Virus record (IMG/VR): IMGVR_UViG_2836862175_000007
Location: 1 to 64,000 of that record
Origin: a virus
Taxonomy: Duplodnaviria > Caudoviricetes
Reading direction: 5' to 3' (one strand)
DNA length: 64,000 nucleotides
A program made the position numbers and the translations under genes. Below, piece by piece: positions 16,042 to 59,366 of this stretch. Numbering within the stretch: position 1 is the first letter of the stretch; each line of letters starts with the position of its first letter. Under the pieces are notes generated by a model, which worked only from the letters and a program-made list of their open reading frames with translations, was not told the DNA's origin and searched no databases.

Positions 16042-16809
16042 TCAGCGGGGCAGCGGGCAGCGCCCGTTCGGGCAGCTCGGTGCGAGCGGGTGACCGGAAA
16101 TCGGCGGCGGGTCCGGCGCCGCGACCGCCGCCGCCCCCGGAACTCGCTCGTAGGTGCCCCGCGCGGTGCGCCGCAGGGGGAAGCCGTCGCGGTCCCAGCA
16201 TTCGGCATCCACGGCCTTCGCAGGCGTGTCCTTCAGGTTCTTCCCGCAGTGGGGGCAGGTCTCGCAATCCGGGCACGTCGGCGGGGCGGCCGCGCGGATC
16301 TCCCAGCTCAGCGGTTTCGGCGCGGGCTTGTCGCCGGCGGGCTTCGGCGCCGGGCGGTCGATCTTCTTCGCCGCCCCGTCGATCGCGGTCTTGAGCGCAC
16401 CGTCTTCGACCGGGCACGCCATGACCGTGTGGACGAACAGCGTGCCGCCCACCGGGTAGCCGACCACCGCCGCGGGGCCGGTCACGTCGCCCAGCGCGTC
16501 GGTCCGCGCGACCACCGCCCCCGGGGCCGGGTGCGGCTCCTTGCACCCCACGAACACCACCAGCGGCCGGGACGACTCGGCCGCCGCCTTGTAGCCCGCG
16601 GCGTAGTCCTTCACGACCGCCCGCGGGGCCGGGGCCGGGGCGCCCGCGGGCGTGCCGGTCAGCGCCAGCGCGACCCGCGCGCGGCGGTCCCGCGCGGCGT
16701 CGGGGTCGGCCGCACGCGCCGGGGCGGCCAGGGCGATCAGGAGCGCGGCGCCCAGCGCCGAGCGGTACACGGTTCGCATGATCTCAACCTCCCAAGGAAT
16801 TTCAGACAC
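16042..16809 (-). CDS. Secreted hypothetical protein with Cys motifs
   Basis: Signal peptide ALLIALAAPARA; CPDCETCPHC; ends CPNGRCP. Confidence 0.65.
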   Translation of the reverse strand: MSEIPWEVEIMRTVYRSALGAALLIALAAPARAADPDAARDRRARVALALTGTPAGAPAPAPRAVVKDYAAGYKAAAESSRPLVVFVGCKEPHPAPGAVVARTDALGDVTGPAAVVGYPVGGTLFVHTVMACPVEDGALKTAIDGAAKKIDRPAPKPAGDKPAPKPLSWEIRAAAPPTCPDCETCPHCGKNLKDTPAKAVDAECWDRDGFPLRRTARGTYERVPGAAAVAAPDPPPISGHPLAPSCPNGRCPLPR

Positions 16810-16855
16810 CAGAAGGGGCGCGGGGCGGACCCGCGCCGGCCCGAGGTTACGCGGC

Positions 16856-18013
16856 TCACCACGCCAGCGCGCCGAGTGCCGGCCGCCCGGCCCCGTCGCG
16901 GCCCCCGGGCGCGCGGCTCACGAACCAGTCGATCGGCACCCGCCGCGCGGGGAACCCCTGCACGTCGGAGAGGGCGAAGCTGTCCCCCTGGCGGGCCATC
17001 CGATCGACCACGGCGGCATCGACCCAGAACCCGGCGGCCGGGGCGTCCGGCGGCCACACGGGGCCGGTGTGCGCGGCGTCGCCCCACGAGTTCAGGCAGA
17101 ACGCCCCGGGCCGGGTCCCGCCGCGCCACGCAATAAAACTCATGCAGTGCGCCCAGTTGCCCTGGGGCCGGGCGAAGCCCTGCTCGTCGCGGCTCATCGT
17201 GAAGCCCTGGTCGCTGCACACCGCCACCGGGTACCCCTGGGCCAGCGCCCGCTTCACGTCGGCCGCGGACCGCACCAGCGCCGTCTGCTTCACCGGGTGC
17301 GCCTTCGCCAGCGCCTCCAACTGGTCGGGCACCCCCACCCCGCGCTGCCCCCACTGGCGGGCGCGCGCCGGGCTGAAGGCGGTGAGGTCGGCGGGCGCGT
17401 GCCGCTCCATCGGCACCACCCCGAAGTCCCGGCACCACTGCGCCGCCCACGCCCCGACCGAGCCGTCCCCGCTGATCTGCCCCTTCCCCACCCGCACCCG
17501 CGAGCCGGCGTAGATCACCTCCGCGCTGACCGGCTTCCACTCGAACGCGGCCCCCTGGGCGATGGCGGTGGCCTGCACCACGTCGCACGCGTGCTTCCAC
17601 CCGCACCCCACGCAGCACCCGACGCTCTGCTGGTTCACGTTCGGGTACGCCGACTCGGGCAGCCGCGCGGCCCGGCGCACCGCGCGCCACAGGTACACGT
17701 CGTCGTCGCCCAGCGCGGCCCGGCCCGCCGGGGTCGCGTCGAAGTGCAGGGTCCGCGCCGGATCGAGGTTGGCGCGGATCGCGTCGTCGTCGCGCACCCA
17801 CCCCTGCGTGGGCACGTACTCGAACTCCTCTGCCCGCGGGCTCACCGGGGCCGGGGCCGGCACCTCGACCTCGCGCACCCGCTCGGGCGCGACCTGCACC
17901 CCGACGCCGGTGCCGAGCACCAGCGGCAGAATGATTTTCAGGGCCAGGATTGCCAGCCGGCGGAGCCGCTCCCGGCGCTCCGGGTCCGGTTGCCGCATGA
18001 TGTCGGTGCTCAT
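16856..18013 (-). CDS. Membrane-anchored papain-like (C1) cysteine peptidase
   Basis: QQSVGCCVG (Gln, Cys), AHCMSF (His), LNSWG (Asn); N-terminal TM helix. Confidence 0.82.
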   Translation of the reverse strand: MSTDIMRQPDPERRERLRRLAILALKIILPLVLGTGVGVQVAPERVREVEVPAPAPVSPRAEEFEYVPTQGWVRDDDAIRANLDPARTLHFDATPAGRAALGDDDVYLWRAVRRAARLPESAYPNVNQQSVGCCVGCGWKHACDVVQATAIAQGAAFEWKPVSAEVIYAGSRVRVGKGQISGDGSVGAWAAQWCRDFGVVPMERHAPADLTAFSPARARQWGQRGVGVPDQLEALAKAHPVKQTALVRSAADVKRALAQGYPVAVCSDQGFTMSRDEQGFARPQGNWAHCMSFIAWRGGTRPGAFCLNSWGDAAHTGPVWPPDAPAAGFWVDAAVVDRMARQGDSFALSDVQGFPARRVPIDWFVSRAPGGRDGAGRPALGALAW

Positions 18014-18078
18014 TCGGGGTTCCGTGTTGGGGGTTAAGAAAGTGGGGCGGACGGGTTCGTTTCGGGAACCGCGGCGGC

Positions 18079-18684
18079 TCACTTCGCCAGTTCGTCCAGG
18101 TGCGCGGCCAGCTTCCGGAACAGCTCCCCGGCCGCGGCCCGCTGCTCGGCGGTGAGGTCCGCGTCGGTGGTGGGGAGCACGGCGGCCAGTTCCGCCGCGA
18201 CCGCCTGCCGCACCTCGCGCAGCGCGGCCTCGCCGATCAGCGCGGCGGCGGCCTCCTTGAGCTTCTGCCGCAGCGTGCCGGCGGTGGTCAGCCCGGGCTC
18301 GGCGGTGAGCTTGGCGGCGGCCCGGTACAGCGCGGCCAGGTCCCGCGCCCACTCGGCCTTCTCGGCGGCGGTGCCGGCGCCGGCGTCGAGCGCCACCTTG
18401 AGCCGCGCCCGCAGCGGGTCCGCGGGGGCGGGCGGCGCCGGGGGCGCGGGCGGCTTCGGCGCGGGGCCGTCGATGCCGAGCTTCTCCAGCAGCTCGCGCT
18501 GGCGCTTCAGCTCGGCGGCGATCCCGGCCAGCGCCGCGCCCTCGGCCTTGTCGAGTTCGGCGCGCTGCCGCCGGATGCCCGCGATCTGGTCGGCGAGCTG
18601 GTCGATGGTCTGGGGCGCGGGCGGCTGGGCAACCGCCCAGGCGGGCGCGAGCAGTCCGAGGACGGGCACAAGAAGGTGGCGCAT
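18079..18684 (-). CDS. Secreted coiled-coil, Pro-rich protein
   Basis: Signal peptide MRHLLVPVLGLLAPAWAVA. Confidence 0.65.
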   Translation of the reverse strand: MRHLLVPVLGLLAPAWAVAQPPAPQTIDQLADQIAGIRRQRAELDKAEGAALAGIAAELKRQRELLEKLGIDGPAPKPPAPPAPPAPADPLRARLKVALDAGAGTAAEKAEWARDLAALYRAAAKLTAEPGLTTAGTLRQKLKEAAAALIGEAALREVRQAVAAELAAVLPTTDADLTAEQRAAAGELFRKLAAHLDELAK

Positions 18685-18705
18685 GGGTCGGGGCTCCGTG
18701 TTACC

Positions 18706-18719
18706 CCCGGCCGATGGCA
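18706..18719 (-). promoter_or_regulatory. Conserved motif TGCCATCGGCCGGG, copy 1
   Basis: 21 nt upstream of ATG at 18684. Confidence 0.75.
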
Positions 18720-19478
18720 GCGAGACGTGAACGACGAGACGGCGGGTCGTGCCCCGGTTACACGGAGGGCACGGGGCGCGCGGGGCGGAACTCATGTCCC
18801 GGTACGGGCACCCAGCTCCATCCGGTCGAACTCCGGAATCGCTACCGGAAGTTCGACTCCCCTCGGAGAGGGGCGATCGAGACCGGCCGGGGCCGGAAGC
18901 CGCGGCACCACCGCCGCGAGCAACTTTCCGCAAATCCTCACACAAACAGCACGTTACGTCGCGGCGGGCGTGGTATTCTCGGTTCCGGCCGGTTCGCGTT
19001 CGGCCACCATTCCGGGTTTTAACACCGGGATTCCGTGGTAGCGGGCGACCAGCGAACGGCCCCCGAACCGACAGCTAATGTCCCGTTGTTGCCCCACCGG
19101 AAGCCGGTACCGAAGGGATTCCCGGCTCCCCGGGCGACCGAGAATCGACCGGCCCAATGCGGTTACTTCCGATTCCGGTTCCAACTTGGGGGCCGATGCG
19201 GTACAAAGTCCGGATCACTCGCGCGGCTCGCCACTTCGCCCGGAACCGGTAACGCCGAGAAACGCCCGGTTTAACCCGAACCCGGAAGGACTTCGGGTCA
19301 AAAGTCCGATCGTCGAAAGTCGTAAGGTCACAGATCCGGTGTGAATGATGGTTCGTGACGTTACGACTTGCTGACCGGACGACTCGTGACCCGGAGCCGT
19401 AACGCTCCCCATCTATCTGATGGCACCGGGCACGTGTAACGGGGCCTGATACATGAGCCCGCCGTGGGTGTCACTTTC

Positions 19479-19542
19479 TGACGAGCCGCGACCGCCAGGG
19501 AGCGCGGTACGTGCCACCGCTCCCGGCGGTCGCGGCTCGTCA
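19479..19542. repeat. Palindromic REP/MITE-like repeat, family A
   Basis: TGACGAGCCGCGACCGCC...GGCGGTCGCGGCTCGTCA; also at 20118 and 60995. Confidence 0.85.
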
Positions 19543-19737
19543 AGAAATGCGACACGACCACCGTGTACGTGTATGAAACAAGCCCCTTGCCGCGGTCCGA
19601 GACGTGAGCTGCGGCAGCCGGCGTGCAATATCACGACCGCGGAGAGGCAAATTAAAAAAGCTTAATTCAACTCGACTTGTTCGGTATGTGTGAGTACAAG
19701 GATGAAAACCGCCCTGAATTTCACCTAGGACAATAAC

Positions 19738-19926
19738 ATGCTTGGTTTCAGCCGATCGTGTCCGAAGTGTCAGAGCCGGGATTTCTGGCTGCGGCGCAAC
19801 CCGAAGCTCCGCGCCCTGCGGCTGGTGTGCGTCCACGCGCTGCGGTGCCGCGCCTGCCACACCTGCGTCTGGCGGGTGGCCCCGTGGTGGTCCAAGCAAG
19901 GCACCACGGTAGCAACAACCCGTTAG
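19738..19926 (+). CDS. Small zinc-ribbon protein
   Basis: CPKC...RCRAC; AGGA upstream. Confidence 0.5.
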   Translation: MLGFSRSCPKCQSRDFWLRRNPKLRALRLVCVHALRCRACHTCVWRVAPWWSKQGTTVATTR

Positions 19927-20117
19927 AAGCCGGACCGCACCTCCTCTCCCCGCGACTCGCCCGTTTACAGAACTGCAGCGTTTCGATCACCTCTCGCGAT
20001 CCCGCGGCGGCGCTTCGCCCGTCACGCGGCCGGTCCACGCCTCGTCACGTCCGAGCCGCCCCCGTCGCGCCAAGCTCCCCGTTCCGAATTCACGTGCCCA
20101 CCTGCGATGTCGCTTTC

Positions 20118-20183
20118 TTGACGAGCCGCGACCGCCAGGGAGCGGGTACGTGGCACCGATCCCTGGCGGTCGCGGCTCGTCAA
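20118..20183. repeat. Palindromic REP/MITE-like repeat, family A
   Basis: Near-identical to 19479-19542 and 60995-61065. Confidence 0.85.
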
Positions 20184-20450
20184 CACAAGCGACACCGCAG
20201 ATGGGTTCATGTCTGAGACCGCGGCGGGCGCGGGGCCGCACCGCTGACGAGCAGCGCCATTCAGATTGCGCCACGGCGCGAATTATCATCCTTCATCACA
20301 AGAGCAGCGCTAACAACGATTTACGGCGCTAATTTATTGACCACTTCGGCTTCGCGATCTAGTTTCCTGTACCGCCTGAGCGACTCGCGAACGCAAGTAG
20401 GCACCCGAGTGGTCAACACCCCTGAGTCTCCGAAATCGAAAGGGTTTCTG

Positions 20451-21734
20451 ATGAAGTTCTGGAGCACCCGCCGAGCGCCCCAAGCCCCCCGCGCCGCTTC
20501 CCCCCTGCGATTCGAGGCCCTCGAAGATCGGTCGGTCCCGAGCGCCGCGGACGTGGTGACGATCGACCCCGCGTACCGCGAGTTCCTGGGCCGCGACATC
20601 GACCAAACCGGGAAGGTGTACTACGCCCAGCGGCTCGACGCCGGCGCGACGTCCGCACAGGTGGCGCTTGAGATTCAGAACTCCGACGAGGGCCAGGCGT
20701 TCAAGGTGACCGAAGCGTTCGCCGAGCTGCTCGGCCGCGCGCCGGGCGACCGGGCCGCGGGCTTCATCACCGGCCTGCGCCAGGGGATGACGCAGGACCA
20801 GATCCGGGCCGCCATCGCCGCCTCGGACGAGTTCTTCCAGCTCAAGGGCGGCGGCACCAACGCGGGCTACCTGAGCGCGCTTTACCAGGCCGCCCTGGGG
20901 CGCGACATCGGGAGCGGCGAGCTGGCGACCCGGACGGCCCAGCTCCAGTCCGGTGTGTCGCGCCTGCAGGTGGCCCGCGACGTGTACGCGAGCCAGGAGC
21001 GCGCCACCCGGGTGGTGAACGAGCTGTACGTCGATTTGCTCGGCCGCACGGGGGAAAGCGCCGGCGTGAGCAACTGGGTCGGCCAGTTACAGTCCGGGGT
21101 GCGCGTCGAGGTGATCGCGTCACGGTTCGTCGCTACGGCCGAGTACTTCGACCTCGCGATCCGCGGCCTGCTGCCCACGGGCACCGGCCCCGCGGGACCG
21201 CAAGGGCCGGCGGGACCGGCCGGAGCGGATGGTGCGGATGGCGTGGATGGCGCCCCGGGCGCGCAAGGGCCGCAGGGGCCGCAAGGGCTGCAAGGGCCGG
21301 CGGGCACGAACGGCACGAACGGCGCGGGCGTGTCGGCGAGTTTTTCGGCTTACCAGCTCGCCACCATTGCCGACTCGACCGTTGTTGGCGGGGCCGACGT
21401 TCCCTTCTCGAACAACGGCGCCGCCATCAGCGGTGATGTTACGCACACCGCCGGGACCACCACCTTCACGGTCAATACGACCGGAACGTACCGGCTGACC
21501 GCGATCTTGAACTACACCGCCGGCGTGGGTGCGGCGATCGCATTTGCGGTCAACGGCTCCTCGCGCCCCGGGTCGACCCCGCTGCTCACGGCCACCGGGC
21601 AGGTCGTACTCGATACGACAGTGACCTTCGCTGCCGGCGATGTGGTTACGCTCCGGAACAACAGCGCCACCCCCCTGGTGATGACGCTGGCGCCTGGTGC
21701 GGGGGCGACGCTCACCATCGACCGCATCGCTTGA
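20451..21734 (+). CDS. Surface protein: planctomycete leader, DUF4214-like repeats, collagen-like GXY, BclA-C-like domain
   Basis: [13 protein letters not shown]; LY..LLGR repeats; [10 protein letters not shown] run; C-terminal beta domain GDVVTLRN. Confidence 0.8.
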
Positions 21735-21825
21735 TGCCGGACCGCGGCCGTGGCTCGGTCACGGCCCGTTCGGAGGTGCGGGCACCCACACCTCCGAACG
21801 GGCCGGGTGGTTGTGTCTGTTTCTT

Positions 21826-21889
21826 GTGGCACAGACATTCCTGTCTGTGCGGCGACTGAAGGCCGCACAGACAGGAATGTCTGTGCCAC
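21826..21889. repeat. REP-like inverted pair
   Basis: GTGGCACAGACATTCCTGTCTGTGC ... GCACAGACAGGAATGTCTGTGCCAC. Confidence 0.85.
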
Positions 21890-21927
21890 GAAGGCAGCAG
21901 CCAAAGTCGGGATGCGAAGACCGTTCT

Positions 21928-21998
21928 GACGGGATCGACAGGATGAACAGGATTTAAAATCAGCCTGTCTTCATCCTGTTAATCCTGTCGATCCTGTC
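21928..21998. repeat. Inverted ACAGGAT / ATCCTGT 9-bp-period repeat
   Basis: gacaggatgaacaggat ... atcctgttaatcctgtcgatcctgtc. Confidence 0.75.
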
Positions 21999-22052
21999 AA
22001 AAACGGCCTTCCCAAGCGTGCGCCCGAACGCCCGGGTGCGGCCCGCGGGCGG

Positions 22053-22877
22053 TCACTCGGTGGCGGGGCTGAGGCCGTCCCGGCGGTCCCCCAGCGCGAC
22101 GAGCACGTCGGTCGGCAGCCCGTACCGGACGTGCCGGACGGACCCGTCGCCGAACACCGCGTTCATCCCGGTGCGGTGCGCGGAACCGAACTCGTACCCG
22201 GTGTTCTGCGCCCGGTCCCGGCCGAACGGGGCCGCCGTCAGGCTCACGATGTCGTTGTCCCACGCGTCCGCGTACCCCTGGTCGTCGCACCAGTCCCCCG
22301 TCTGGTACCGCTCCGTGTGGAGCCGCTTCTCGCCGATCACCAGCGTGTTCGACAGCCCGTCGGTGACGGACTCCGTGGTGGTCCGCAGCGGGTTCCGCAC
22401 GATCACCCCGTAGTACGGCCCCGCCTCCTCCGCGCCGCCGCCGGGACCGGTGGCGCTCGCGTAATCGATCAGCCCGCGGCCGGCGACCGCGAGGGGCGCG
22501 CGCCGGGCCGGGCAGAAGTACCCCGGCACGACCACCGAGACGACCGACGGCCCGCTCCGGTACGCCGTGTCCAGCTCCAGGTACGGGAGCAGTTGGAACG
22601 CCCAGCCGGCGTTCTGGGACGAGAGCCACGCCGGGGTTTTGCCGACGTAGGTGGGCGGCTTGGTCCAGTGCCCCCCGCCGCTCGGGAAGTAGCCGACGGC
22701 CTCGTGGTGGGTGTGCAGGGCGAGGCCGATTTGCCTCAGGTTGTTGCTGCACGACATCCGGGCGGCGGCCTCGCGCACCTTCTGAACGGCGGGCAGCAGC
22801 AGGCCGATCAAAAGGGCGACGATCGCGATGACGACCAGCAGTTCGATGAGCGTGAAGGCGCGGCGTGCGCGGGACAT
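22053..22877 (-). CDS. DUF1559 prepilin-type (PulG-like) protein
   Basis: [13 protein letters not shown]...[25 protein letters not shown]; H-X9-DG motif [12 protein letters not shown]. Confidence 0.95.
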
Positions 22878-23435
22878 CCTCGGTCTCCGGGTGACGATTC
22901 GGGGAACACCCACGACCGTAGCGCGCGTTGCCCCCCGCCGGCCGGCGGGCGAGGGGCGGGGGGCGGAAATAGGGGTCCGCCTGACGCGGAAAATGGGCCG
23001 GCAAAAGAAATGTCCACAGTCGCGCAAATGACTATCGCACGCTCGCCAACTCGATTGTTTAACTTAGGAAACATGGGCTGTTTCCGCCCGGAAGCCGTGT
23101 TAACGCCGCGTAACCGGGCACCTGAACCCCGCGGCGGCGCCCGTTCCGGCGAGCCGCGGCTGCCGAGTAACGAGGTATGCCCACACAGAAAGCGCCGCGG
23201 CAGGCGGACCCGGACGGACCCGTTGTAAACTTGCTGAGCGCCCCCGTCCGAAACCGGCGACCATTGGGGAACTTCGCACGGTGGGTTCGATGGCTTACCG
23301 CCGGCGCCACCGCTCCGCGCCCGACCGTCGCCGCATAACTCGGGAGCGGCCGGGCGCGTGCCCGCGTTCGCCGCCGCACAAGCGGGACAATAAACTCACC
23401 ACTAGCCGCCACGGAGTTGACCGGAGATCGCCCGC

Positions 23436-23947
23436 GTGAACCGTCTGCCCGCCGTCGATGCACTCCGGGGCGCGGCCGCGCTGGCGGTGGTGCTGTTCCA
23501 CTACACGGAGTTTTTCGCCCTGTTCGAGGTGCCCGCCGGTCCCGCCGGATCGGCCGTTCTCGCGGTGACGCGGTGCGGCCACCTGGGGGGGCCGGTGTTC
23601 TTCGCCCTCAGCGGGTACGTGATCGCGTCGACCGCCCAGCGGTACCAGTTCACGCCCGGCACCGGGTTCCGTTTCGTGCTGCGAAGGCTGGTCCGGACCG
23701 TGTCCCTGTGCTGGGCCATGCTGACGTTTATTACGCTGAGCATCCTGGCGGGCACGCGGTGGGGCTGTTCAAGAACACCACGGTTTCGTTCGACCAGTTG
23801 CTCGCGCACATGGTGTACGCGCAGGAGGTCCTGGGTTACACCGCGCTGGACGTGGCGTACTGGACGCTCTGCCTGGAGGTCCAGTTCTACCGGGTGTTCA
23901 CCGCGTCCGCGGTCGCGGTGCGCGCGTGGCCCGGTTCGCGGCCCTGA
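23436..23947 (+). pseudogene. Frameshifted, truncated acyltransferase-3
   Basis: DALRGAAALAVVLFH and FFALSGYVI in one frame; YWTLCLEVQFY in another. Confidence 0.75.
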
Positions 23948-24176
23948 GCGCCGCGCCGGTCGCCGCCGGACCACATCCAAAACACGAATTATGTTCACAT
24001 CAATAAATATGGCCTTATTGAGCCGGTTACGCACGGGGCCGTCGGGGTGCCCTGCGGAACGGCGGGTTGCGCGCGGCTGCACCCGGCCAGCGCCCCCCTT
24101 TTCGGGCTAAAAACCTAACAATCACACGAATCAATAAAATTACATCATTGTAGTCACAGCGTGTCAGAGGCCATTC

Positions 24177-25268
24177 ATGAGTAACGGCGTTCCCGCACCC
24201 AGTCCGGTTTCACCGCGGACACACATCCCGGCACTCGACGTGCTTCGCGCGGCGGCGATCGTGTGGGTCGTCCTGCGGCACACGCACGGGGGCGGATACC
24301 TGCCGGAGCACCTGAACCCAAATATCGGGAGGCTCCTGTCATCCGGAGATGCGGGCGTAGACCTGTTCTTTGTTTTGAGCGGCTACCTGATCGCGACGAT
24401 CGTACTGGGTGAAGCGGGGGCGAGCGGCCGGCTCGACGTCCGGCGCTTCTGGTACCGCCGCTGGATGCGCACGCTCCCGGCCTATTACGTCATGCTGGCC
24501 CTGATCGCGCTCGGCGACCTCGTTTATACGGCAGCGGGGTCGTGGTCGCCGCGGTGGAGCTACCTCGTCTTCATGCAATCAACGCTGATCGGGTTCGATA
24601 ACATGCGGTTCGCCTGGTCCTGGTCGCTTTGCGTAGAAGAGCTGTTCTACCTCATCCTGCCGGTGCTGGTGGTGGGGGCGCTGCGGCTGCGCGTTCCCGC
24701 GCGGGCGGCCCTCCGGCTGATCGCCTGCGGCGCAATCGTGATGTCCGTTGCCGGCCGGGCGGCGCTGGGGATGTACGGCGCGGCCGGCAGCCACACGCCC
24801 GGGTACGGCGTGCCGTATTGCCGGATGGACGGACTCGCGGTGGGCCTGCTGATCGCGACCCTGGGACCGGGCCGCAGCGCCGCCACCTCGACGTTCCTCG
24901 GCCTGCTCGCCACCGCGGCCCTTGCGGTTTACGTCTGGGCCGACCAGCCGGAGTGGTTCAAGGACCAGCGATTCCTCCCGCTCTCGCTGATCTTTGGTGC
25001 CATGGTCTATGCCGGCATTTCCGCGGGGCCGTGGCGCAACCTGCGGGTTCCGGGGGCGTCCGGCGTTGCGGCCCTGTCGTACGCGATTTACCTGCTGCAC
25101 CCGGTCATCGCGGTCGTAGTGATGAAGTTCGTGAGCGCCGCCTGGCCGATCAAAGTGCTCGCGTTCTGGTCCGTGTCTCTGGTCGCGGCGCTGGCGATGC
25201 GTTACGCAGTGGAGCTGCCGGCGCTCCGGTGGCGGGACCGGCGCAAGGCCGTAACCGAACAGAAGTAG
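24177..25268 (+). CDS. Acyltransferase-3 (OafA-like)
   Basis: LDVLRA, GVDLFFVLSGYLI, RRWMRTLPAY, WSLCVEELFY, SYAIYLLH. Confidence 0.93.
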   Translation: MSNGVPAPSPVSPRTHIPALDVLRAAAIVWVVLRHTHGGGYLPEHLNPNIGRLLSSGDAGVDLFFVLSGYLIATIVLGEAGASGRLDVRRFWYRRWMRTLPAYYVMLALIALGDLVYTAAGSWSPRWSYLVFMQSTLIGFDNMRFAWSWSLCVEELFYLILPVLVVGALRLRVPARAALRLIACGAIVMSVAGRAALGMYGAAGSHTPGYGVPYCRMDGLAVGLLIATLGPGRSAATSTFLGLLATAALAVYVWADQPEWFKDQRFLPLSLIFGAMVYAGISAGPWRNLRVPGASGVAALSYAIYLLHPVIAVVVMKFVSAAWPIKVLAFWSVSLVAALAMRYAVELPALRWRDRRKAVTEQK

Positions 25269-25552
25269 TTGAAGGCCGACCGCTGAAGTACGGGCTGGTA
25301 GGCTTGGTGCTGGTGGCATGCCTCCGCCGGGACACGTCCAGATCGGAGGCGAGTGTTGGGTTGGCAATCGCGCTCTCAACCGCCGCGGCGATCGGGCTTG
25401 CCTATCTGCTCTACCTCTGTGGCGAGAAGGCGGTAATCCGCTTGTCCCGCAGGGTACAAGTTTAATCGCGTCTGCCCCACAGCGACTCAGTTCAAGTGAA
25501 ATTGCCCCCATTACCGAGTTCCACCTAATAGCCTCCATTCAAATCAGCCATT

Positions 25553-26503
25553 ATGCAAAAAAATCGCGATGGCCGCTCAGACGAACTCAAGGCAGTAGCC
25601 ATTGTGGCCGTCGTATGCATCCATGCAGGTCTTCCGTATGCCGATATTCTCAGGTTTTGCGTACCAGTATTTCTGTCCATCTGGGCGTACCACTATGAAC
25701 AGGGGTTATCACGTCGCCAAGATCGCACTTGGACATACGCCCAACAGCGATTCGTCCGGTTGCTAATCCCATACTTATTTTGGACTGCTGTATACATACC
25801 ACTCTTTCACACAAGCAGCGAGTGGCGATCAGTTCCGCCGAACGTGATTGTGAATGGCTGGCTAGGCGGCTACGGCTGGTCCGGACAGTATTTCTTCATC
25901 ATACTGTTTCAATTAACATTGTTGTTTCCGCTATTGCGCCGCTACGCATCACCACTACCGCTGTGGATCGTTATAGCCGTGGGAGCGATCTGTAACCCAC
26001 TGGCCGACTATTACTTGTTCAGATCTTACGTTGCGTCAGGGGTAGGCGATAGGCTCTTCGTCTATTGGTTACCCTACGTATTCGTCGGAATTGGCCTCGC
26101 ACGTGGCACGATTCGACCGACGCTCTTACTGATGCCATTGGCTACTGCGACCCTCTTGACGCCAACTGAGTTCTCACAACTTTTGCTCACCGTCCCGCGA
26201 GCATCACCCTACCTAGTGGTCAGTGTCACAGTGGGGTCGCTTGCGATATTGCTTGCAATGGGGCCAACGACTCGTGAGCCCTCGCTGCGGCAACTGCGGT
26301 GGCGACAAGTGATCCAGTACATCGGGCGCAACAGCTTTTCGATTTTCCTATCGCACTTACTATTCTTGAATCTTGGCGGCGTCCTGTTTGACATGTCCAA
26401 TGTATCAATACGAGTTTTAATTACCGGTATTGCCATCATAGGCGGCCTGGGGCTTGGAGTTGCTCTCAAGCGAATCCGCCTGGGAATTCTGGTTGGCCAG
26501 TAA
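25553..26503 (+). CDS. Acyltransferase-3, lower GC
   Basis: DELKAVAIVAVVCIH, RFCVPVF, RLLIPY, GRNSFSIFLSH. Confidence 0.88.
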   Translation: MQKNRDGRSDELKAVAIVAVVCIHAGLPYADILRFCVPVFLSIWAYHYEQGLSRRQDRTWTYAQQRFVRLLIPYLFWTAVYIPLFHTSSEWRSVPPNVIVNGWLGGYGWSGQYFFIILFQLTLLFPLLRRYASPLPLWIVIAVGAICNPLADYYLFRSYVASGVGDRLFVYWLPYVFVGIGLARGTIRPTLLLMPLATATLLTPTEFSQLLLTVPRASPYLVVSVTVGSLAILLAMGPTTREPSLRQLRWRQVIQYIGRNSFSIFLSHLLFLNLGGVLFDMSNVSIRVLITGIAIIGGLGLGVALKRIRLGILVGQ

Positions 26504-26689: not shown

Positions 26690-28003
26690 TTACATCGCCA
26701 GTGCGGTCGCCAGCCCCACCCCCACCAGACCGCCAATCGCGGTGTGCCCGGCCTGGATCGGGTGCGTGCCGTCGCCGGCGGTGCCCGCCGATGCGACGCT
26801 ACTCAAATCCACGATCACATCCCCATAAATCCCACCCGAGTTGCTCAAGAGCGCGGCGTTAGTAGCCGCCTGAGCAGCCGCAAATGCAGTGGCGTCCGTA
26901 CCACCGCTGAACAGGCTGGTGCGATTGATCACGGTGGGGCATACGCTCTTGAACCCGGCCGCCCTGGAGTCCGCCACCCACTGCGCATGAGACGCTAGTG
27001 TCGATGCGACACTAGCACCAGATGCAAGCGAGTTAGTTAGCTCCCACTGAACCGCAACGTTCTTGGTTCCGGCTTGATACCACGTCCCCCACATCGCCGC
27101 ATCGCGACTTTGGAGCGCGGACGTGGTAGCGCCAGAACTCCCCCAGTTGCGCCAATCATGGGCTGACACGCTGGCGGCGTCCGCAGCGATCGAGGCGAAC
27201 GGTGCAAATCCGGCAGACGCGCCGTATGTGATCGAGTTACCGGTGAAGATGACGTTAACGGACCGACTCGGGAGTGTGATCCCGAAGGTAGCCATACGGG
27301 CTTGAACCGCTGCCTGGAGTTGCGGGCCAGTGAGTCCGGTCGCCCACACGTCAAGCTGCGCGAGATCCCCCCCCGAATTCACCCCGGAGATGGTCCCGAT
27401 TCCGATTGCCGGCCTCGTTCCGGCGGCTAATGGCGTGGCGCTGGCGCGAGCCAACCGCCCGTTGACACACCACTGATATCCGCTCGCCACACTCGTGAAC
27501 CCGATCACCCAGAAACCGGTCAGTGGCGCGCCGTACTCGCTCGGCAGGTAGCTCCCCAAACTACCAATCTCAGGGCGCTGATATCCGTTAATCAAATGCA
27601 GCCCCGCGCTACCGAAGTTATCAGCGGTCGTGAGCACGTTCACGCATGAAGCCCGATCCGTCCGGCGCCTCTCGTAAACGATTACCATCGCGTGGTTTTG
27701 CATATCCAGGGGCGCCGGCAGCACTCCGCCGATCAGTACCGCTGCGTCGGCGCGCACCGCGTGTTTCCCAATGCCGGCCGCGTCCTTCTGATATGTGCAA
27801 AAATTCGACCCAATGTCCGTTAGTTTTCCTCCGCCTACACCTGTCCAGCACTTTACTAATTGGCCGGTCGCCGTCGCCGGGGTAGTACCGGCCGTGTCTG
27901 TGAAGTGACCGCCGGTAGACAGCCATGATTCCTGTGGCGATGGCACGGTAATGCCGCCCGTCCGCCGCAACTGATTGATCGCCAGCCCCACGCCCGATTT
28001 CAT
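26690..28003 (-). CDS. Putative head fibre with C-terminal SGNH/GDSL hydrolase domain
   Basis: FTGNSITYG, NWGSSG, DGTHP; N-terminal GVGLAI peptide; directly after the spike-base gene. Confidence 0.72.
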   Translation of the reverse strand: MKSGVGLAINQLRRTGGITVPSPQESWLSTGGHFTDTAGTTPATATGQLVKCWTGVGGGKLTDIGSNFCTYQKDAAGIGKHAVRADAAVLIGGVLPAPLDMQNHAMVIVYERRRTDRASCVNVLTTADNFGSAGLHLINGYQRPEIGSLGSYLPSEYGAPLTGFWVIGFTSVASGYQWCVNGRLARASATPLAAGTRPAIGIGTISGVNSGGDLAQLDVWATGLTGPQLQAAVQARMATFGITLPSRSVNVIFTGNSITYGASAGFAPFASIAADAASVSAHDWRNWGSSGATTSALQSRDAAMWGTWYQAGTKNVAVQWELTNSLASGASVASTLASHAQWVADSRAAGFKSVCPTVINRTSLFSGGTDATAFAAAQAATNAALLSNSGGIYGDVIVDLSSVASAGTAGDGTHPIQAGHTAIGGLVGVGLATALAM

Positions 28004-28013
28004 CGCGCTCCCC

Positions 28014-28256
28014 TCATGCGTAGGCGACGATGTCGGCGGCGGTGGTGCCCGTGGCGTTCACGCGCACGCCCTCGACCGGCAGGCACTCGCCGCCCTGGCA
28101 GTTCTTGAACGTGACCGCGGCGCCGTCCTTTCGCACCACCACCACGTCCCCGGCGGCGCCGATCCGCAAGGACCGGAACGCGCGCGGGGCGTTCGCCGTG
28201 TTGCTCGGGGTGACCGCGAAATAGTAGTCGCTCGGGTCCGATAGGCTCGCCGGCAT
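28014..28256 (-). CDS. Head spike base protein (RcGTA Rcc01079-like)
   Basis: 80 aa: FAVTPSN...RSLRIGAAGDVVV...G..VTFKN...LPV...RVNATGTTAADIVA. Confidence 0.82.
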   Translation of the reverse strand: MPASLSDPSDYYFAVTPSNTANAPRAFRSLRIGAAGDVVVVRKDGAAVTFKNCQGGECLPVEGVRVNATGTTAADIVAYA

Positions 28257-28276
28257 GTCCGCATCCTCCACAGGTT

Positions 28277-28290
28277 CCCGGCCGATGGCA
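28277..28290 (-). promoter_or_regulatory. Conserved motif TGCCATCGGCCGGG, copy 2
   Basis: 20 nt upstream of ATG at 28256; GGAGG between. Confidence 0.75.
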
Positions 28291-30778: not shown

Positions 30779-30807
30779 CCCGATCCTCTCGTGAAGCTGT
30801 GGTCGAA

Positions 30808-46088: not shown

Positions 46089-46193
46089 GCCGGGGCATTC
46101 CGGCGAAATCGCGCGAGAGTCGCACGCGCCCGCGGGACGGCCCGTACAGTAGTGTGGACCCGTCTACTGACGACGTTGCGCAACGGAGAACGC

Positions 46194-48377: not shown

Positions 48378-48480
48378 GGCCGCGGGGCGAAAATCGGCAC
48401 CACGTCCTTGCGTCCGCCGGCGCCGCGCGGTACTGGTCGAAGCGTGCCGGGCGCCGCCCGGTCCGTCCGGAGTCGCCCCC

Positions 48481-48828
48481 ATGTGGTACGCCCTCGCGAT
48501 CGTCGCCGCTCTGGTCGGGTACTGGTCGGCGCGCTACTGGCTCGCGTTCCGCCGGGTGCGGGCACTCCAAGCGGGGCTCGACAAACTCGGCGACCCGCTC
48601 GGCCGCACCCGGGCCGAAGTCGCGGCGGCGCTGGGGCCGCCCACCCGCGTACCGGAGCCCACCGCCGACGAGGAGCTGATGATCTGGGTCGAGAAGGGGC
48701 GGTTCTCCCTGCTCGACGCCTACACCGTCTCCGCCCACGTGGAGGCCCGGATGCGCTTCCGGGACGGCGTGTGCGTCGCGCTCAACGACCACGACGAGCC
48801 CGAGCCCGGCCCCGACCGCCGGATCTGA
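48481..48828 (+). CDS. Membrane-anchored hypothetical protein
   Basis: N-terminal TM; GRTRAEVAAALGPP. Confidence 0.55.
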   Translation: MWYALAIVAALVGYWSARYWLAFRRVRALQAGLDKLGDPLGRTRAEVAAALGPPTRVPEPTADEELMIWVEKGRFSLLDAYTVSAHVEARMRFRDGVCVALNDHDEPEPGPDRRI

Positions 48829-48891
48829 CCCGCGCGGGACGCCTCGAAGTCCCGATGCCCGGCACACCGTTCGCCCCCCGGAGATGACCGT

Positions 48892-49314
48892 ATGCGGTAC
48901 TTGGCTGTTGCGGCGGCCCTGCTCGTGACCGTCCCGCGCCTCGGCGCGGACGAGCCGACGGCCGCCCGCGTTCTGGAGAAGGTGAAGACGACGTACCCCG
49001 CGAAGTCGGTCGCCGAGGGCGCGCGGCTGCTCGGCGGCGTCCTCGAATCCTGCCACGCCGTCGGCGCCGGCACCGCCGCCGAGCTGGCGGCCGCGCGGAA
49101 GGGCGACCACGTCCGGTTCCTGTTCCCGAAGCCGCTCCGGGTCGAGGTCGGGGGCCGGACCCTGGAGGCGTCGGAAGTGGTCTACGCGGACGGGGTGCTC
49201 TGGCTCGCCTGCGGCCCGCGCGTCGTCCGCTGCACCAAGTACACGCACCTCCAAATGGAACCGTTCCGGAAGTGGTACGAGCAGACGCTGCCGGCCGACC
49301 CGCCGCGCCCGTGA
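48892..49314 (+). CDS. Secreted hypothetical protein
   Basis: Signal peptide; GGAG upstream. Confidence 0.6.
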   Translation: MRYLAVAAALLVTVPRLGADEPTAARVLEKVKTTYPAKSVAEGARLLGGVLESCHAVGAGTAAELAAARKGDHVRFLFPKPLRVEVGGRTLEASEVVYADGVLWLACGPRVVRCTKYTHLQMEPFRKWYEQTLPADPPRP

Positions 49315-49336
49315 GCCCCGCCGCCGGAGCCCCGAC

Positions 49337-49747
49337 ATGGCACTGGTCCTGATCCCCGCCGTCTTCGTGCTCCTCGCCTGGGCCAACACCGCGGCCGTGC
49401 GCGCGCTCCGGGCTCGGCGCGCCCCCGGCGGCTGGTGGGCCGCCCTAGCGGTGCTCTGGCTGGCCGGGGCCGCGGCCGGCGCGTGGGGCGGGTTCTTCGC
49501 GAAGTACCAGGCGTCGCCCACGCTCCGGGTGTACGGTCTGCCGCTGCCGATCGGGGCCGCAATCCTGGTGGGGCCGCCGGGACGGGAGCAGTGGGTGGGG
49601 TACGCCTCACCCGCCGGGGTTCTGCTCGCCGCCGCGAACGTGCCGCTCGTCGCGCTGCTGGCCGGGAGCGCCGTCGGCCCGGTGTTCTGGTTGCGGCACA
49701 GGAGCCGCTTCCGAACCGCGGGCGGGCACGGAGGGCACAGCGGATGA
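49337..49747 (+). CDS. Membrane protein
   Basis: Three to four TM segments. Confidence 0.6.
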   Translation: MALVLIPAVFVLLAWANTAAVRALRARRAPGGWWAALAVLWLAGAAAGAWGGFFAKYQASPTLRVYGLPLPIGAAILVGPPGREQWVGYASPAGVLLAAANVPLVALLAGSAVGPVFWLRHRSRFRTAGGHGGHSG

Positions 49748-50130
49748 AACCCACATCGCGAAGGCAGTCGGCCGCGGCGGTCGGCGTGCTGGTCGTCGGG
49801 CTCGCGGCCGTCCTGATTTCCTTTCGCGCCCCGGCCCCCGCCGCCCCGCGGGTCGAGCAAATGGAGCGGGTCGTACCGGGACTGACCGAGGCCGAAGTCG
49901 TCGCGCTGCTCGGGGCGCCCCCGGGCGACTATTGCAGCGACCCGGGCCGCTTCACCGTCGACCACCGCAGCCTCCCCCAGGTGCCCATCGACCTCGAGCG
50001 CGGCCCGCACCGCACCGTGTTCTGGCGGAGCGACGAGGCCCGGCTCGAGGTGCGGTTCGGGGCCGACGGCCGGGTCGTATACCGCCGCGTCTGCGAGTCG
50101 GTCGATCAGCGGCCCCGCGCCCGCCGGTAA
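49744..50130 (+). CDS. SmpA/OmlA-like membrane-anchored protein
   Basis: TM followed by PGLTEAEVVALLGAPPG; ATGA overlap with the previous gene. Confidence 0.6.
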   Translation: MKPTSRRQSAAAVGVLVVGLAAVLISFRAPAPAAPRVEQMERVVPGLTEAEVVALLGAPPGDYCSDPGRFTVDHRSLPQVPIDLERGPHRTVFWRSDEARLEVRFGADGRVVYRRVCESVDQRPRARR

Positions 50131-50143
50131 CCGCCCCCGCCCG

Positions 50144-50599
50144 CTACTGCGCCGCTTGCGCGCGTTCGGACTGCTTCTGCCGCACCGCCCACGAGTGCCA
50201 CAGCTTGTCCACCACCGTGACCAGTTGGTGCGGGTCCACCGGCTTCACCAGGTGGAGGTCGAACCCGGCCGCCGCGATGCGCCGCCGGCTGTTGTCGTCG
50301 CTCATCGCCGTGAGCGCGACCAGCACCACCGGCCCGGCGTCCGGGTCCGGGCGCAGCCGCCGCGCCAGCTCGTCGCCGTCCATGCCCGGCATGTTCAGGT
50401 CCAGCAGGCACACCCCCGGGTGGAACGTTGCCGCCAGCGCCAGCGCCGTCGGACCGCTGTAACAGGCCCGCGCCTCGAACCCGACGGCGCACAGCAGCTC
50501 GACGGTCGTGTCGGCGGCGTCGTTGTTGTCGTCCACGCAGAGCACCCGCAGCGGCGGTTCCGATTCGGTCGTGCTCTCGCTCGGTGGTACAGGGCACAT
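50144..50599 (-). CDS. Response regulator receiver protein
   Basis: VLCVDDN, LLDLNMPGMDG, AGFDLHLVKPV. Confidence 0.9.
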   Translation of the reverse strand: MCPVPPSESTTESEPPLRVLCVDDNNDAADTTVELLCAVGFEARACYSGPTALALAATFHPGVCLLDLNMPGMDGDELARRLRPDPDAGPVVLVALTAMSDDNSRRRIAAAGFDLHLVKPVDPHQLVTVVDKLWHSWAVRQKQSERAQAAQ

Positions 50600-51164
50600 T
50601 GCGACACCTTCCGGTTGTGGATCGGAGGCTACGCGGGATGCCGCACCGTCCGCCGCTATAAGCAAAAGCAACTCCCAGGCCGAGCCAAAACGGAATTTGT
50701 GTGGAGAGAACAAGTTACACGCTCCTTGCTCCCGCTTAATATTTGCCCGACACTCATGGCAGGCGCGAATCTTACGCCCCTACCTGCGAAACTGCTGCCC
50801 ACCGGTGCGCCGGTCATTTCCCAACTACTTTTTCCCTGTGTGGTAGTTCTGGCAGCTCGAACCTCGTCTCTGCCCACACCGGAGGGATTCTGGCGCGTGA
50901 TTGCCGTCCGGGAAGCGAAGCGGTCCGCACGGATCGCAATCGCTATAAGCACAAAAGCATCAAAGCGTTACGACACAGAACTCGACCATCACCGATAGCG
51001 CACCCGCTCGTCTCCTGCCGCATTGGGGGGGCTTTGGGGGCGTGATTCGTGGGTAGCGACCGCCCAGCACCCGACCAGCGAACCGGCAGTCGATCGGCAG
51101 CGAATGTCCCGTCGGTGCCCCATCGGAAGCCGACCGGCCCACCTGCTGTAACGGGGGTTACAGG

Positions 51165-51573
51165 AGGAAAGGCAACCTAACCCCCCGGCCCCCTTCTGAA
51201 GGGAGGGGGAGCAGAACCGAAGACAACCTACCCCCCGGCCCCCTTCCCTAAAGGGAAGGGGGTGGCGCCGAGAACGCTGGTCCCAGCGCGAGAGGCGCGC
51301 GCGGGGCAACCCACCCCCCAGCCCCCTCCCTGAAGGGAGGGGGAGCAAAACCGAAGACAACCCACCCCCAGCCCCTCACTGAAGGGAGGGGAGGAAGGCA
51401 CTTCGGTTCCGCATCGCGAATCACGTTCGCTTCGCGGATCAACCATCCTCCCCCTCCCTTCAGGGAGGGGGCTGGGGGTGGGTCGCCCCGCGCGCACCTC
51501 CCGCCCCGGGATCACTCCTCCCGGTGCCACCCCCTTCCCTTCAGGGAAGGGGGCCGGGGGGTTAGGTCTTCGC
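51165..51573. repeat. Cluster of CCCCTCCCTGAAGGGAGGGG-type repeats, right copy, inverted relative to 45600-46088
   Basis: Unique core at about 51390-51450 is the reverse complement of about 45850-45910. Confidence 0.88.
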
Positions 51574-51654
51574 CTCCGCGCACCCGCACCGTCCCCCGAG
51601 CGACATGCGCCGCATACCGGCGGGCCAGAGGCCCGCGCTCCAGTACCACCGCCG

Positions 51655-55732: not shown

Positions 55733-55857
55733 GGGCGGTGCGGGTGCTCACGGGCGGGTTCGGCGCGCGGGTCGCACCGGGTTAGCGATACCGTAACCGG
55801 GCGAACGACCGTCGGAAAGCGCATTCCGAGCGCCGGCCGGTACGTGCGCGCGGCACA

Positions 55858-56020
55858 ACCCACCCCCGGCCCCTTGTCGTGCAGGGAGGGGAGGAAGGCA
55901 ACCTACCCCCAACCCCTCCCTGAAGGGAGGGGAGTAAGAACCACGGCGTGCCCGAGGCGGGATCGGCGCGCGAGCGGCTTTGCTCCCCTCCCTTCAGGGA
56001 GGGGTCGGGGGTGGGTCGCC
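55858..56020. repeat. CCCCTCCCTGAAGGGAGGGG-type repeats
   Basis: Same unit as the 45600 and 51165 clusters. Confidence 0.8.
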
Positions 56021-56147
56021 CCGCGAGCGCATGAACGCCCCGGGGTCGTGCGTGCGGCTCAGCCCTTGCGCGCCTTCTGTAACGTTGCCACAAACGACCG
56101 CGCCCCTGCACGGAACCGGGGCGCGGGGGATACGTCTTGTATGTGGA

Positions 56148-56774
56148 GTTCAGCCCGGCGGGTTCGGCGGAGCGGTGCCCCGGGCGGCGGCGAGCAGCCG
56201 CTCCAACACGGCCAGTTGCTCGGCGCTCAGGCTCCCCGGGTTCAGCCCGGCCAACCCGCCCGTCAGCACGGCCGCCTTCTGCCCCTCGTCCGTCAGCCCG
56301 CTCAGCACCGCCGCCGCCGCGCCCGCCTGCTCGGCCGCCGGGGCACCCGCCACCACCGCCGCCACGTGGGCCGTCATCACGGCTGGTGACGCGCCAGCCA
56401 GCGCGCGGGCCAGACCGATCCCGACGGCATCCGGGTGCGCCCCCGCCGCCAGGTGCGCCTGGGCCTCCATTCGTGCCTCAGCCGCCGCCGCCGTCAGATT
56501 CGTGAGCGCTTGCTCCTTCGCATCCATTGCTGGCCCCTTCGTTCGTGTATGTTCAGCCCGGCGGGTTCGGCGGAGCGGTGCCCCGGGCGGCGGCGAGCAG
56601 CCGCTCCAACACGGCCAGTTGCTCGGCGCTCAGGCTCCCCGGGTTCAGCCCGGCCAACCCGCCCGTCAGCACGGCCGCCTTCTGCCCCTCGTCCGTCAGC
56701 CCGCTCAGCACCGCCGCCGCCGCGCCCGCCTGCTCGGCCGCCGGGGCACCCGCCACCACCGCCGCCACGTGGGC
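56148..56774. repeat. 224-bp direct repeat (56148-56371 and 56551-56774)
   Basis: Both copies translate to HVAAVVAGAP...PPNPPG*. Confidence 0.92.
56150..56527 (-). CDS. Ala-rich protein sharing its C-terminus with the portal fusion
   Basis: AAGGGG upstream; last about 72 aa identical to the end of 56553-59351. Confidence 0.6.
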   Translation of the reverse strand: MDAKEQALTNLTAAAAEARMEAQAHLAAGAHPDAVGIGLARALAGASPAVMTAHVAAVVAGAPAAEQAGAAAAVLSGLTDEGQKAAVLTGGLAGLNPGSLSAEQLAVLERLLAAARGTAPPNPPG

Positions 56775-59351: not shown

Positions 59352-59352
59352 G

Positions 59353-59366
59353 CCCGGCCGATGGCA
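59353..59366 (-). promoter_or_regulatory. Conserved motif TGCCATCGGCCGGG, copy 6
   Basis: 1 nt upstream of ATG at 59351. Confidence 0.75.

Follow-up and report, generated by a model that had tools for sequence, protein, structure and literature searches.

Four groups of described systems come closest to the prophage-like locus considered here, a 64,000-nucleotide stretch of viral DNA (the window) which forms bases 1-64000 of the 77,537-bp IMG/VR 'provirus' record IMGVR_UViG_2836862175_000007. The record aligns base for base with the complete 9.0-Mb Gemmata genome G132 (C1:1409010-1486546, reversed), and the element within it is referred to as copy A. RcGTA-type gene transfer agents (GTAs) of Alphaproteobacteria resemble copy A, judged from genes alone, in having a head and non-contractile tail set, a short tape measure and host-like GC content, in carrying no integrase at the locus, in evolving under purifying selection and in the proximity of response regulators. 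Copy A differs in matching no RcGTA family, in keeping a primase-helicase, in its length (~64 kb versus ~15 kb), in its restriction to two species at the site and in having temperate siblings bounded by attachment (att) sites. Temperate siphoviruses of the lambda/HK97 group produce their tail assembly chaperones by the G/GT frameshift. Copy A shares with them the order TerS-TerL-portal-head-connectors-tube-G/GT-tape measure-tip and a -1 heptamer, and its sibling has an integrase in a tRNA gene. The lineage departs from this group in a capsid that has no match among 50,697 deposited phage records, a portal of 932-1465 aa and a repeated 14-nt motif, and copy A itself in the absence of integrase and att sites.

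The headful terminases of the Mu-like phages RcWaterboi, RcapMu and Mushuvirus are related to that of copy A, with TerL 33-37% identical over 90-97% of its length. A transposable Mu-like phage was rejected as an identity for the element, as copy A contains no transposase, its replication gene is a primase-helicase and its sibling relies on a tyrosine recombinase for integration. Cryptic or 'grounded' prophages and those packaged in situ are alike in being resident and non-excising and in combining late genes that are still intact with a headful terminase beside chromosomal genes. Copy A, known here from sequence, is more conserved across species than is usually described for these. Phages of Planctomycetes are scarcely known, and the locus and its relatives define a family of Gemmata siphoviruses. 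A search of the literature by title and abstract opening disclosed no report on a gene transfer agent or on phage particles of Gemmata. One published account states that the isolation of a Gemmata phage was still outstanding in 2017, that Gemmata genomes contain prophage-like genes, with an incomplete prophage-like region in G. massiliana, and that a 26.9-kb metavirome contig was attributed to Gemmata, its TerL being only 31% similar to Gemmata genes (PMC5707555).

Copy A is interpreted here, with moderate confidence, as a non-excising resident prophage of a new lineage of Gemmata siphoviruses, that is, of temperate phages with a long non-contractile tail. Such a copy would be unable to excise by itself, its genes being kept intact by selection and by exchange with active relatives. 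Particles may still be produced upon induction. The original prediction, which concerned positions 16042-59366, had proposed a host-maintained particle, either a GTA or a protein-delivery capsid, in place of an excisable prophage. Non-excisability does fit copy A, with no recombinase or att site, flanks common to two species and purifying selection; several of the premises for a GTA or delivery capsid fail.

The temperate nature of the lineage is established by a second copy in the same genome (copy B), which was found by a search with the capsid and whose capsid is ~90% identical. The head genes of copy A are closest to those of copy B. This sibling is compact, occupying 46.1 kb at G132:8440316-8486456, and is colinear with copy A from the primase to the 255-aa gene. 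Upstream of the primase it carries a DNA methylase gene, small genes of phage type and, abutting a tRNA-Ile(GAT), a tyrosine integrase of 400 aa. An exact 50-bp direct repeat, which takes in the 3′ part of this tRNA, is present at 8440316 and again at 8486407; the two form a textbook attL/attR pair around the 46.1 kb. Integrase, tRNA-Ile and att repeats together show that the lineage is temperate. Copy A carries ~28 kb more than copy B, as cargo and host repeats in three large gaps of 9.2, 12.2 and 10.9 kb (1.1, 3.1 and 0.7 kb in copy B). An att-bounded copy and a recombinase-free, cargo-laden copy within one genome constitute a natural experiment on the stranding of a prophage. The portal open reading frame (ORF) of copy B (L027 7520-11917) is 1465 aa long versus 932 aa in copy A, with the first 504 residues 79% identical; it had no Pfam match at E 0.01.

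The limits of copy A do not coincide with those of the record. Both record ends are gene starts (ATG of the integrase at 1, of the primase at 77537), and therefore reflect the prediction program rather than the element. The element is ~64 kb long, from window position ~16.0 kb to record position ~79.7 kb, and the span first described is its structural two thirds, ending at 59366 with the motif copy ahead of the portal. To the left, homology to copy B stops within the 255-aa gene, directly beyond which lies a response regulator. To the right of the primase there follow a 179-aa gene, a protein with HTH_17 and receiver domains, two small plus-strand ORFs and, from 82.1 kb, the host housekeeping genes aat (leucyl/phenylalanyl-tRNA protein transferase) and gyrA. 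Response-regulator genes thus stand at both ends. The absence of replication, integrase and repressor genes noted in the original prediction is correct for the span up to 59366, and no integrase was found anywhere in the element; the element continues, however, to TerL, TerS, a helix-turn-helix (HTH) protein and the primase-helicase.

The search for a means of excision gave nothing that belongs to copy A. No tyrosine recombinase (PF00589) is present in 16-82 kb, the nearest of the 29 matches in the genome being the integrase of a neighbouring island and one ~31 kb beyond the right end. The five serine recombinases (PF00239) of the genome are all far away, and no remnant of the integrase or early genes of copy B was found in copy A. 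The integrase at 1-1281 was rejected as that of copy A; it belongs to the neighbouring island, which is separate, bounded by 26-bp repeats and absent from G. algarum. Comparison of the two ends by exact words of at least 13 nt and by blastn-short gave only GC-rich chance matches of at most 16 nt, together with one 60-nt repeat far outside the element. No insertion point could be defined by comparing the aat locus of G132 with those of the Gemmata genomes G154, G153 and G175, where only aat and one neighbour are common. Among contigs of two sequencing runs, only repeat-related joints were found. A copy without recombinase or att sites, with ~28 kb extra and with the same flanks in two species is unlike a working temperate phage.

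The second species is Gemmata algarum JC673 (G001), of which the assembly is fragmented. TerS is 100% identical, TerL 99.6%, the capsid 97% and the portal 97% (481 residues, one contig). Both species have the same left neighbour, and on the right the flank agrees as far as an epimerase gene beyond gyrA. Matches in G. algarum were not found for the ORFs at 63.6-67.6 kb or for the tail module at 34.6-40.7 kb, in the latter case among the best 40 of 942 and of 555 candidates scored. The G. algarum ortholog instead has tail genes 40-45% identical in amino acids to the tail of copy B.

Rates of substitution were calculated by the Nei-Gojobori method for 35 gene pairs of copy A and G. algarum. The packaging and head genes are strongly constrained, with a dS of 0.047 and dN/dS of 0 for TerS, 0.082 and 0.03 for TerL, 0.112 and 0.09 for the portal and 0.088 and 0.125 for the capsid; the primase has 0.072 and 0.26. 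Host flank genes have a dS of 0.045 (gyrA), 0.011 (aat), 0.018 and 0.034 (two small ORFs) and 0.10 (epimerase). Divergence is higher in the left third of the element (dS 0.13-0.97). Strain specificity with relaxed selection had been named beforehand as an outcome which would refute a host-maintained particle. The distribution goes part of the way, the locus being restricted to two species, whereas selection is not relaxed (dN/dS 0-0.13 for TerS, TerL, portal and capsid).

The family is scattered among Gemmata genomes. TerL relatives of 49-100% identity occur in 11 of 29 genomes, in one to three copies and at different loci, and the capsid was found in 7 of 151 sampled Gemmataceae genomes (E <= 1e-20). 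The locus of copy A is common only to G132 and G. algarum. Five further elements were compared, in G154, G153, G175 and Gemmata sp. IIL30 (G002), the last with one on scaffold 2 and one on scaffold 6. The elements of G154, G153 and IIL30 scaffold 2 are like copy A in having the GNAT acetyltransferase gene and a gap of ~9-13 kb between portal and head genes, and no recombinase was found among eight ORFs scanned upstream of the G154 primase. On IIL30 scaffold 6 and in G175, an integrase is encoded ~19 kb upstream of TerL, and every relative has an open primase homolog. The tail modules are mosaic, one type occurring in copy A, G154 and G153 and another in copy B, G. algarum and IIL30 scaffold 2.

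Several observations weigh against a stranded prophage. The element and its flanks have diverged to about the same extent, the dS of core genes (0.035-0.11) lying within the flank range (0.01-0.10), and constraint holds throughout, which is the strongest point in favour of a host-maintained particle. No stop was found in the G. algarum sequences of the 35 genes and no core gene is broken; the low dN/dS of the core genes (0-0.26) fits domestication at least as well. Flanks and most insertions are common to the two species, G. algarum having both the phytochrome-regulator cassette and the DUF4214-DUF1559-acyltransferase block. Decay is what one would expect of a prophage unable to excise, so that the intactness of copy A calls for an explanation. 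At ~64 kb, as against 46 kb for a sibling with a ~90% identical capsid, the element may exceed the capacity of its own head. The elements of G154, G153 and IIL30 scaffold 2 are mutually colinear at 82-95% nucleotide identity, with no tyrosine or serine recombinase within >100 kb, and are likewise constrained (dN/dS 0.02-0.07 for the capsid and 0.04-0.14 for TerL, at dS up to 0.48). Neither a holin nor a classical endolysin was recognised in the element.

The swap of the tail module between the two species is direct evidence of overwriting by recombination with active relatives, and this offers one ordinary explanation of the intactness; a mobility function that escaped recognition would be a second, and domestication a third, less ordinary one. 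The phage reading is preferred on the combined grounds of a temperate lineage, retained replication and packaging genes, sibling-like signals, occurrence in two species and the exchange of modules.

A fully active temperate phage, with an integration function not recognised as such (a novel recombinase or a host system) and with its cargo as morons in a larger head, is unlikely, yet has points in its favour. None of the recognisable genes for virion, packaging and replication is broken, many ORFs are without a family (those of 506, 472, 437, 424 and 261 aa among them), and shared flanks in related species would also be the outcome of site-specific integration. The architecture of a GNAT gene after the portal and long gaps recurs in four more genomes. 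On the other hand, direct repeats were not found at the ends, and a tyrosine or serine recombinase is lacking within ~30 kb in G132 and near the G154, G153 and IIL30 scaffold 2 elements. The divergence equals that of the flanks. TerL and the nearest primase homolog of G153 are 55 kb apart, more than one headful could span if that homolog belongs to the element. No related complete genome was found, the scans having returned three distant short contigs (IMG/VR, TerL), three provirus records (IMG/VR, capsid alignment) and three metagenome contigs of 1.9-5.7 kb.

A domesticated GTA-like or lateral-transducing particle system is improbable. Here a fixed locus under host two-component control would package chromosomal DNA, either as random headfuls or from a pac site into the gyrA flank. 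The missing recombinase and att sites agree with it, as do the flanks and flank-like dS in two species, the low dN/dS of the packaging and head genes (0-0.13), the size of the locus relative to its sibling, and a second recombinase-free orthologous set under purifying selection in three other species. A headful-type TerL, 36-37% identical to those of the Rhodobacter phages RcapMu and RcWaterboi, and the response regulators at both ends, with a phytochrome kinase and a further regulator inside, also point in this direction. Set against these are a primase-helicase that has been kept intact under constraint (dN/dS 0.26) and has an open frame in every relative, and a motif and gene order which are the same as in the att-bounded sibling. 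The restriction of the locus to two species, with a patchy and multi-copy family, argues against an old GTA, and the tail swap indicates continuing exchange with a phage pool. Genes overwritten from active phages would be expected to show purifying selection just as much. No RcGTA family was matched; the RcGTA-like spike base and fibre pair proposed at first found no support, neither in the Pfam scans, which took in ~50 proteins of the record, nor in Protein Data Bank (PDB) searches with four proteins. That recombinase-free elements as a class would be host-kept particle systems, packaging chromosomal DNA by headfuls and switched by two-component signals (in copy A a red/far-red sensor), is similarly improbable. 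A host-kept system of this kind would, if real, be the first such in the PVC superphylum, and transducing particles made by stranded copies would extend GTA-like biology to a new phylum.

An inert, decaying remnant, intact-looking because too little time has passed, is very improbable: the missing recombinase, the many insertions with an IS3 element and a second island adjoining, and the duplicated gene ends would suit it, but at a dS of 0.05-0.11 neutrality predicts a dN/dS near 1 and some frameshifts, where 0-0.26 and no stop in 35 genes were observed, and constraint also holds in the second set at dS up to 0.69. A recombinase-free, apparently oversized, flank-inherited and strongly constrained copy is unlike a dying prophage.

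Copy A and its sibling share a distinctive signal. The motif TG[AC]CATCGGCCGGG has six exact minus-strand copies in the window versus 0.17 expected, and one further match on the plus strand with one mismatch. Over the whole of G132 there are 18 exact matches, of which 12 fall in copies A and B (~1.2% of the genome), and the reversed-pattern control gave one. An ATG follows the 10-nt core CATCGGCCGG after 2-3 nt in four of the six copies of the element, and at 14 of 21 sites in six elements (12 by script, 2 read from the sequence). This spacing sets the starts of the 382-aa head gene and the 538-aa Cys- and Thr-rich protein. No conservation was found further upstream. The original prediction had pointed out that every unit of the broken-up cluster keeps the motif. 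The six copies are confirmed, and yet the compact copy B also has six on its gene strand at equivalent genes, preceding the portal, a 390-aa head gene, a 74-aa gene, a 528-aa protein, an 80-aa ORF and a 204-aa secreted protein. The motif is thus a signal of the phage lineage, and its origin does not lie in holding scattered units together.

As the phage's own cis signal, the motif would mark the start of successive late gene blocks, probably as a promoter-like element giving leaderless or near-leaderless mRNAs. Numbered from the A of the ATG, TG would stand at -15/-14 and A-T at -11/-10, resembling the extended -10 element of a leaderless transcript. The motif may be read by the 313-aa HTH protein encoded upstream of TerS, which is conserved and a candidate activator. 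A sigma-54 or Shine-Dalgarno reading was rejected by eye, neither spacing nor letters fitting. As the motif is lineage-specific and close to the start codon, it could serve to map late operons.

Genes were picked by codon bias, given a GC range of 58-76% in the stretch, and were then scanned against Pfam and PHROGs. Table 1 lists the features. The minus-strand order is primase-helicase, HTH protein, TerS, TerL, portal, head assembly, capsid, connectors, tube, G/GT, tape measure, tip, Cys/Thr-rich protein with glycosyltransferase, and peptidase block. The virion and packaging families recovered from Pfam, among the ~50 proteins scanned, were only Phage_capsid_4, Phage_portal_2 and Terminase_2, apart from Peptidase_S78 in the neighbouring island.

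Table 1. Features of copy A and of the neighbouring island, in record numbering (identical with that of the window up to 64,000).
Feature	Position	Strand	Remarks
Primase-helicase, 907 aa	74814-77537	-	AEP/D5_N/DUF5906 (Pfam); intact
HTH protein, 313 aa	73129-74070	-	Conserved; upstream of TerS
TerS	71748-72503	-	PF03592, E 7.5e-26
TerL	70298-71833	-	phrog_38, E 1e-76
DUF6948 paralogs (4)	61894-63437 (window); 67970-68725, 69446-70297 (record)		C-terminal DUF6948, E ~1e-26 each; phrog_18306, E 3e-138
14-nt motif, six copies (starts)	18706, 28277, 32427, 45571, 52250, 59353	-	
Motif copy 1, TGCCATCGGCCGGG	59353-59366	-	Portal ATG 1 nt after the 14-mer
Palindromic-repeat clusters and 46-nt inverted repeat upstream of portal	45600-46100, 51160-51580, 55846-56045, 59391-59533		
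Portal, 932 aa	56553-59351	-	phrog_21, E 2e-107; PF05136, E 2.5e-13
125-aa ORF	56150-56527	-	Copy of portal 3′ end, 264 nt at 93% identity (repeat family D6)
Low-GC block (GC 0.60), ORFs of 295, 220 and 199 aa	52264-55900	-	No family matches
Motif copy 2 and GNAT acetyltransferase, 197 aa	51655-52263	-	
Phytochrome/regulator cargo cassette	45821-51478	+	Between portal and head genes
Bacteriophytochrome histidine kinase	~46200-48377	+	
Three small ORFs of the cassette	45821-51478	+	
Response regulator of the cassette	50144-50713	-	
Motif copy 3 and head-assembly gene, 382 aa	44421-45584	-	Scaffold or protease role by position only
Head gene, 237 aa	43645-44358	-	Scaffold candidate by position
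Major capsid protein, 469 aa	42202-43611	-	PF25209, E 1.8e-10, 42 bits versus cut-off 27
Head-tail connector and tail-tube genes, 109, 75, 115, 153, 126 and 167 aa	39834-42200	-	Order kept in relatives
Tail assembly chaperone pair	38673-39437	-	155-aa ORF (38970-39437) and -1 extension
Tape measure candidate, 414 aa	37452-38696	-	phrog_1533, E 2.4e-4 (weak); directly after frameshift pair
Tail-tip candidate, 386 aa	36305-37465	-	After tape measure; nearest Atlas clusters viral, carrying no family
Tandem duplication, ~1.16 kb	34619-36304		Repeat families D3 and D4
Two near-identical lipoprotein ORFs	34704-35150, 35860-36303	+	Signal peptide and Cys; created by the 1.16-kb duplication in the tail module
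164-aa ORF	35147-35641		Partial copy of the 386-aa gene 3′ end, 95% over 300 nt
424-aa protein	33344-34618	-	No family match
Block starting with motif copy 4	28301-32440	-	
Cys- and Thr-rich repeat protein, 538 aa	30808-32424	-	
GT2 glycosyltransferase-domain protein, ~825 aa	28301-30778	-	30 nt after the 538-aa gene
Motif copy 5, 80-aa ORF (28014-28256), 437-aa ORF	26690-28290	-	437-aa ORF without family match
Cargo block	18946-26503	both	Common to G. algarum; ~1.1 kb instead in sibling
DUF1559/N-methyl protein	22053-23027	-	
DUF4214-collagen-BclA_C protein	20337-21734	+	
Two acyltransferase_3 genes	within 18946-26503	+	
Motif copy 6 and last block	16042-18719	-	Block common to sibling copy
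Secreted coiled-coil protein, 201 aa	18079-18684	-	
Membrane-anchored papain-like peptidase, 385 aa	16856-18013	-	
255-aa protein	16042-16809	-	
Response regulator	15325-16038		Directly left of the 255-aa gene
Island IS3-type transposase	11855-12983		
Island pentapeptide-repeat protein	7556-8881		
Island Peptidase_S78 prohead protease	3609-4088		
Island sigma70_r4-like HTH protein	2705-3592		
Island tyrosine integrase	1-1281		

The co-oriented head, neck and non-contractile tail set with open frames, as first described, is borne out by the portal, capsid, connectors, frameshift pair and 414-aa ORF on the minus strand. The host-like GC is confirmed too, at 0.70-0.76 in the core versus 0.69-0.70 in six host-flank stretches. 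Homologs of the 382-aa gene stand upstream of the capsid gene in all relatives, and a weak 'tail protein' match (phrog_16194, E 0.007) lies among the connector and tube genes. The frameshift pair has a canonical -1 slippery heptamer, C CCA AAA, in frame at 39033-39039, and the shifted frame reaches 38673, at the start of the tape measure gene. As no sheath-sized ORF was found between the capsid and the tape measure, an anatomy of head, neck and non-contractile tail is correct. The short tape measure of the original prediction is a real ORF of 414 aa. Tail length usually follows tape-measure length at ~0.15 nm per residue, and a tail of ~60 nm would result.

The proteins beyond the tape measure are less readily assigned. 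Sequence and profile searches of the PDB had no match for the proteins of 386, 424, 255 and 385 aa, and for a 498-aa ORF only two chance-level matches (E 0.5-0.7). AlphaFold2 models had a mean pLDDT of 31 for the 386-aa protein (3-row alignment) and 33 for the 385-aa peptidase (4 rows), too low for a fold search. The 424-aa protein has a homolog 94% identical in G. algarum, on another contig. The copies of the portal end and of the 386-aa gene end both have foreign DNA after them, a sign that the insertions may have brought a replacement gene end with them.

The primase-helicase sits 2.3 kb upstream of TerS. The TerL appears to be of the headful, Mu-like type, and with TerS would package DNA by headfuls. 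Between TerL and the portal lie ~11 kb with the four DUF6948 paralogs and genes without an assigned family. The paralogs have glycine-rich repetitive middles and differ in copy number in G. algarum. Their first ~34 residues are common to a 261-aa gene, and the 179-aa gene and a 239-aa gene of the sibling match the same N-terminal family. A 472-aa ORF at 65171-66589, between the paralogs, matches the ribosomal protein L10 family over its first 90 residues (PF00466, E 9e-9); neither this ORF nor the low-GC block downstream of the portal had a match in G. algarum. The GNAT gene is kept downstream of the portal in G154, G153 and G002 at 59-63% amino acid identity.

Within the distal late blocks, the 538-aa protein is built of Cys/Trp-containing modules joined by poly-threonine linkers, with many Cys and Trp positions invariant in five homologs. 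The adjoining GT2 protein is the best-conserved late gene of the family (68-88% identical in all relatives), and the two together may produce a glycosylated fibre or adhesin. The 385-aa peptidase has no Pfam match; all four sequences compared agree at its Q, C, H and N-S-W-G positions, and the clusters nearest to it in the Atlas are viral, with 14-20% of members carrying PF00112. To judge from sequence, the anchored peptidase block may serve in lysis.

The interruption by host-type genes is as first described, with DUF1559, acyltransferase, phytochrome kinase and response regulator genes, and with palindromic host repeats. The phytochrome cassette, bounded by 139-nt inverted repeats (99% complementary) and clusters of palindromic repeats, looks like a mobile cassette. 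The palindromic repeats have the core CCCCTCCCTKMAGGGAGGGG, with 12 matches versus 0.01 expected. These and the 46-nt repeats match dozens of contigs across the G. algarum genome at 78-90% identity, and hence are REP- or MITE-like elements of the host; breaks in the G. algarum assembly coincide with them. ARAGORN called a tRNA-Arg(CCT) at 51253-51328 within a repeat cluster, two 85%-similar copies at 45.6-45.9 kb being uncalled, and across the whole window no tRNA reached the Rfam gathering score. The call is probably false or a tRNA-like repeat, and was rejected as an att site on both counts. A 27-nt word, TTGACGAGCCGCGACCGCCAGGGAGCG, was found five times (none expected), twice as a hairpin pair, at 19478-20183 and 60997-61063; one site is upstream of a 163-aa gene and the rest are in the cargo block at ~19.5-20.2 kb.

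To the left of copy A, window positions 1-15299 form a separate integrative island of ~15.4 kb, which the IMG/VR record has fused with the prophage. It is flanked by an exact 26-bp repeat, at 15274-15299 and at 135-160 nt to the left of window base 1. In G. algarum, the response regulator stands ~1 kb from the gene that lies left of the island in G132. Besides the genes in Table 1, the island contains several ORFs without an assigned family and has a GC of 0.62. The island may represent a satellite-like element or what is left of another prophage.

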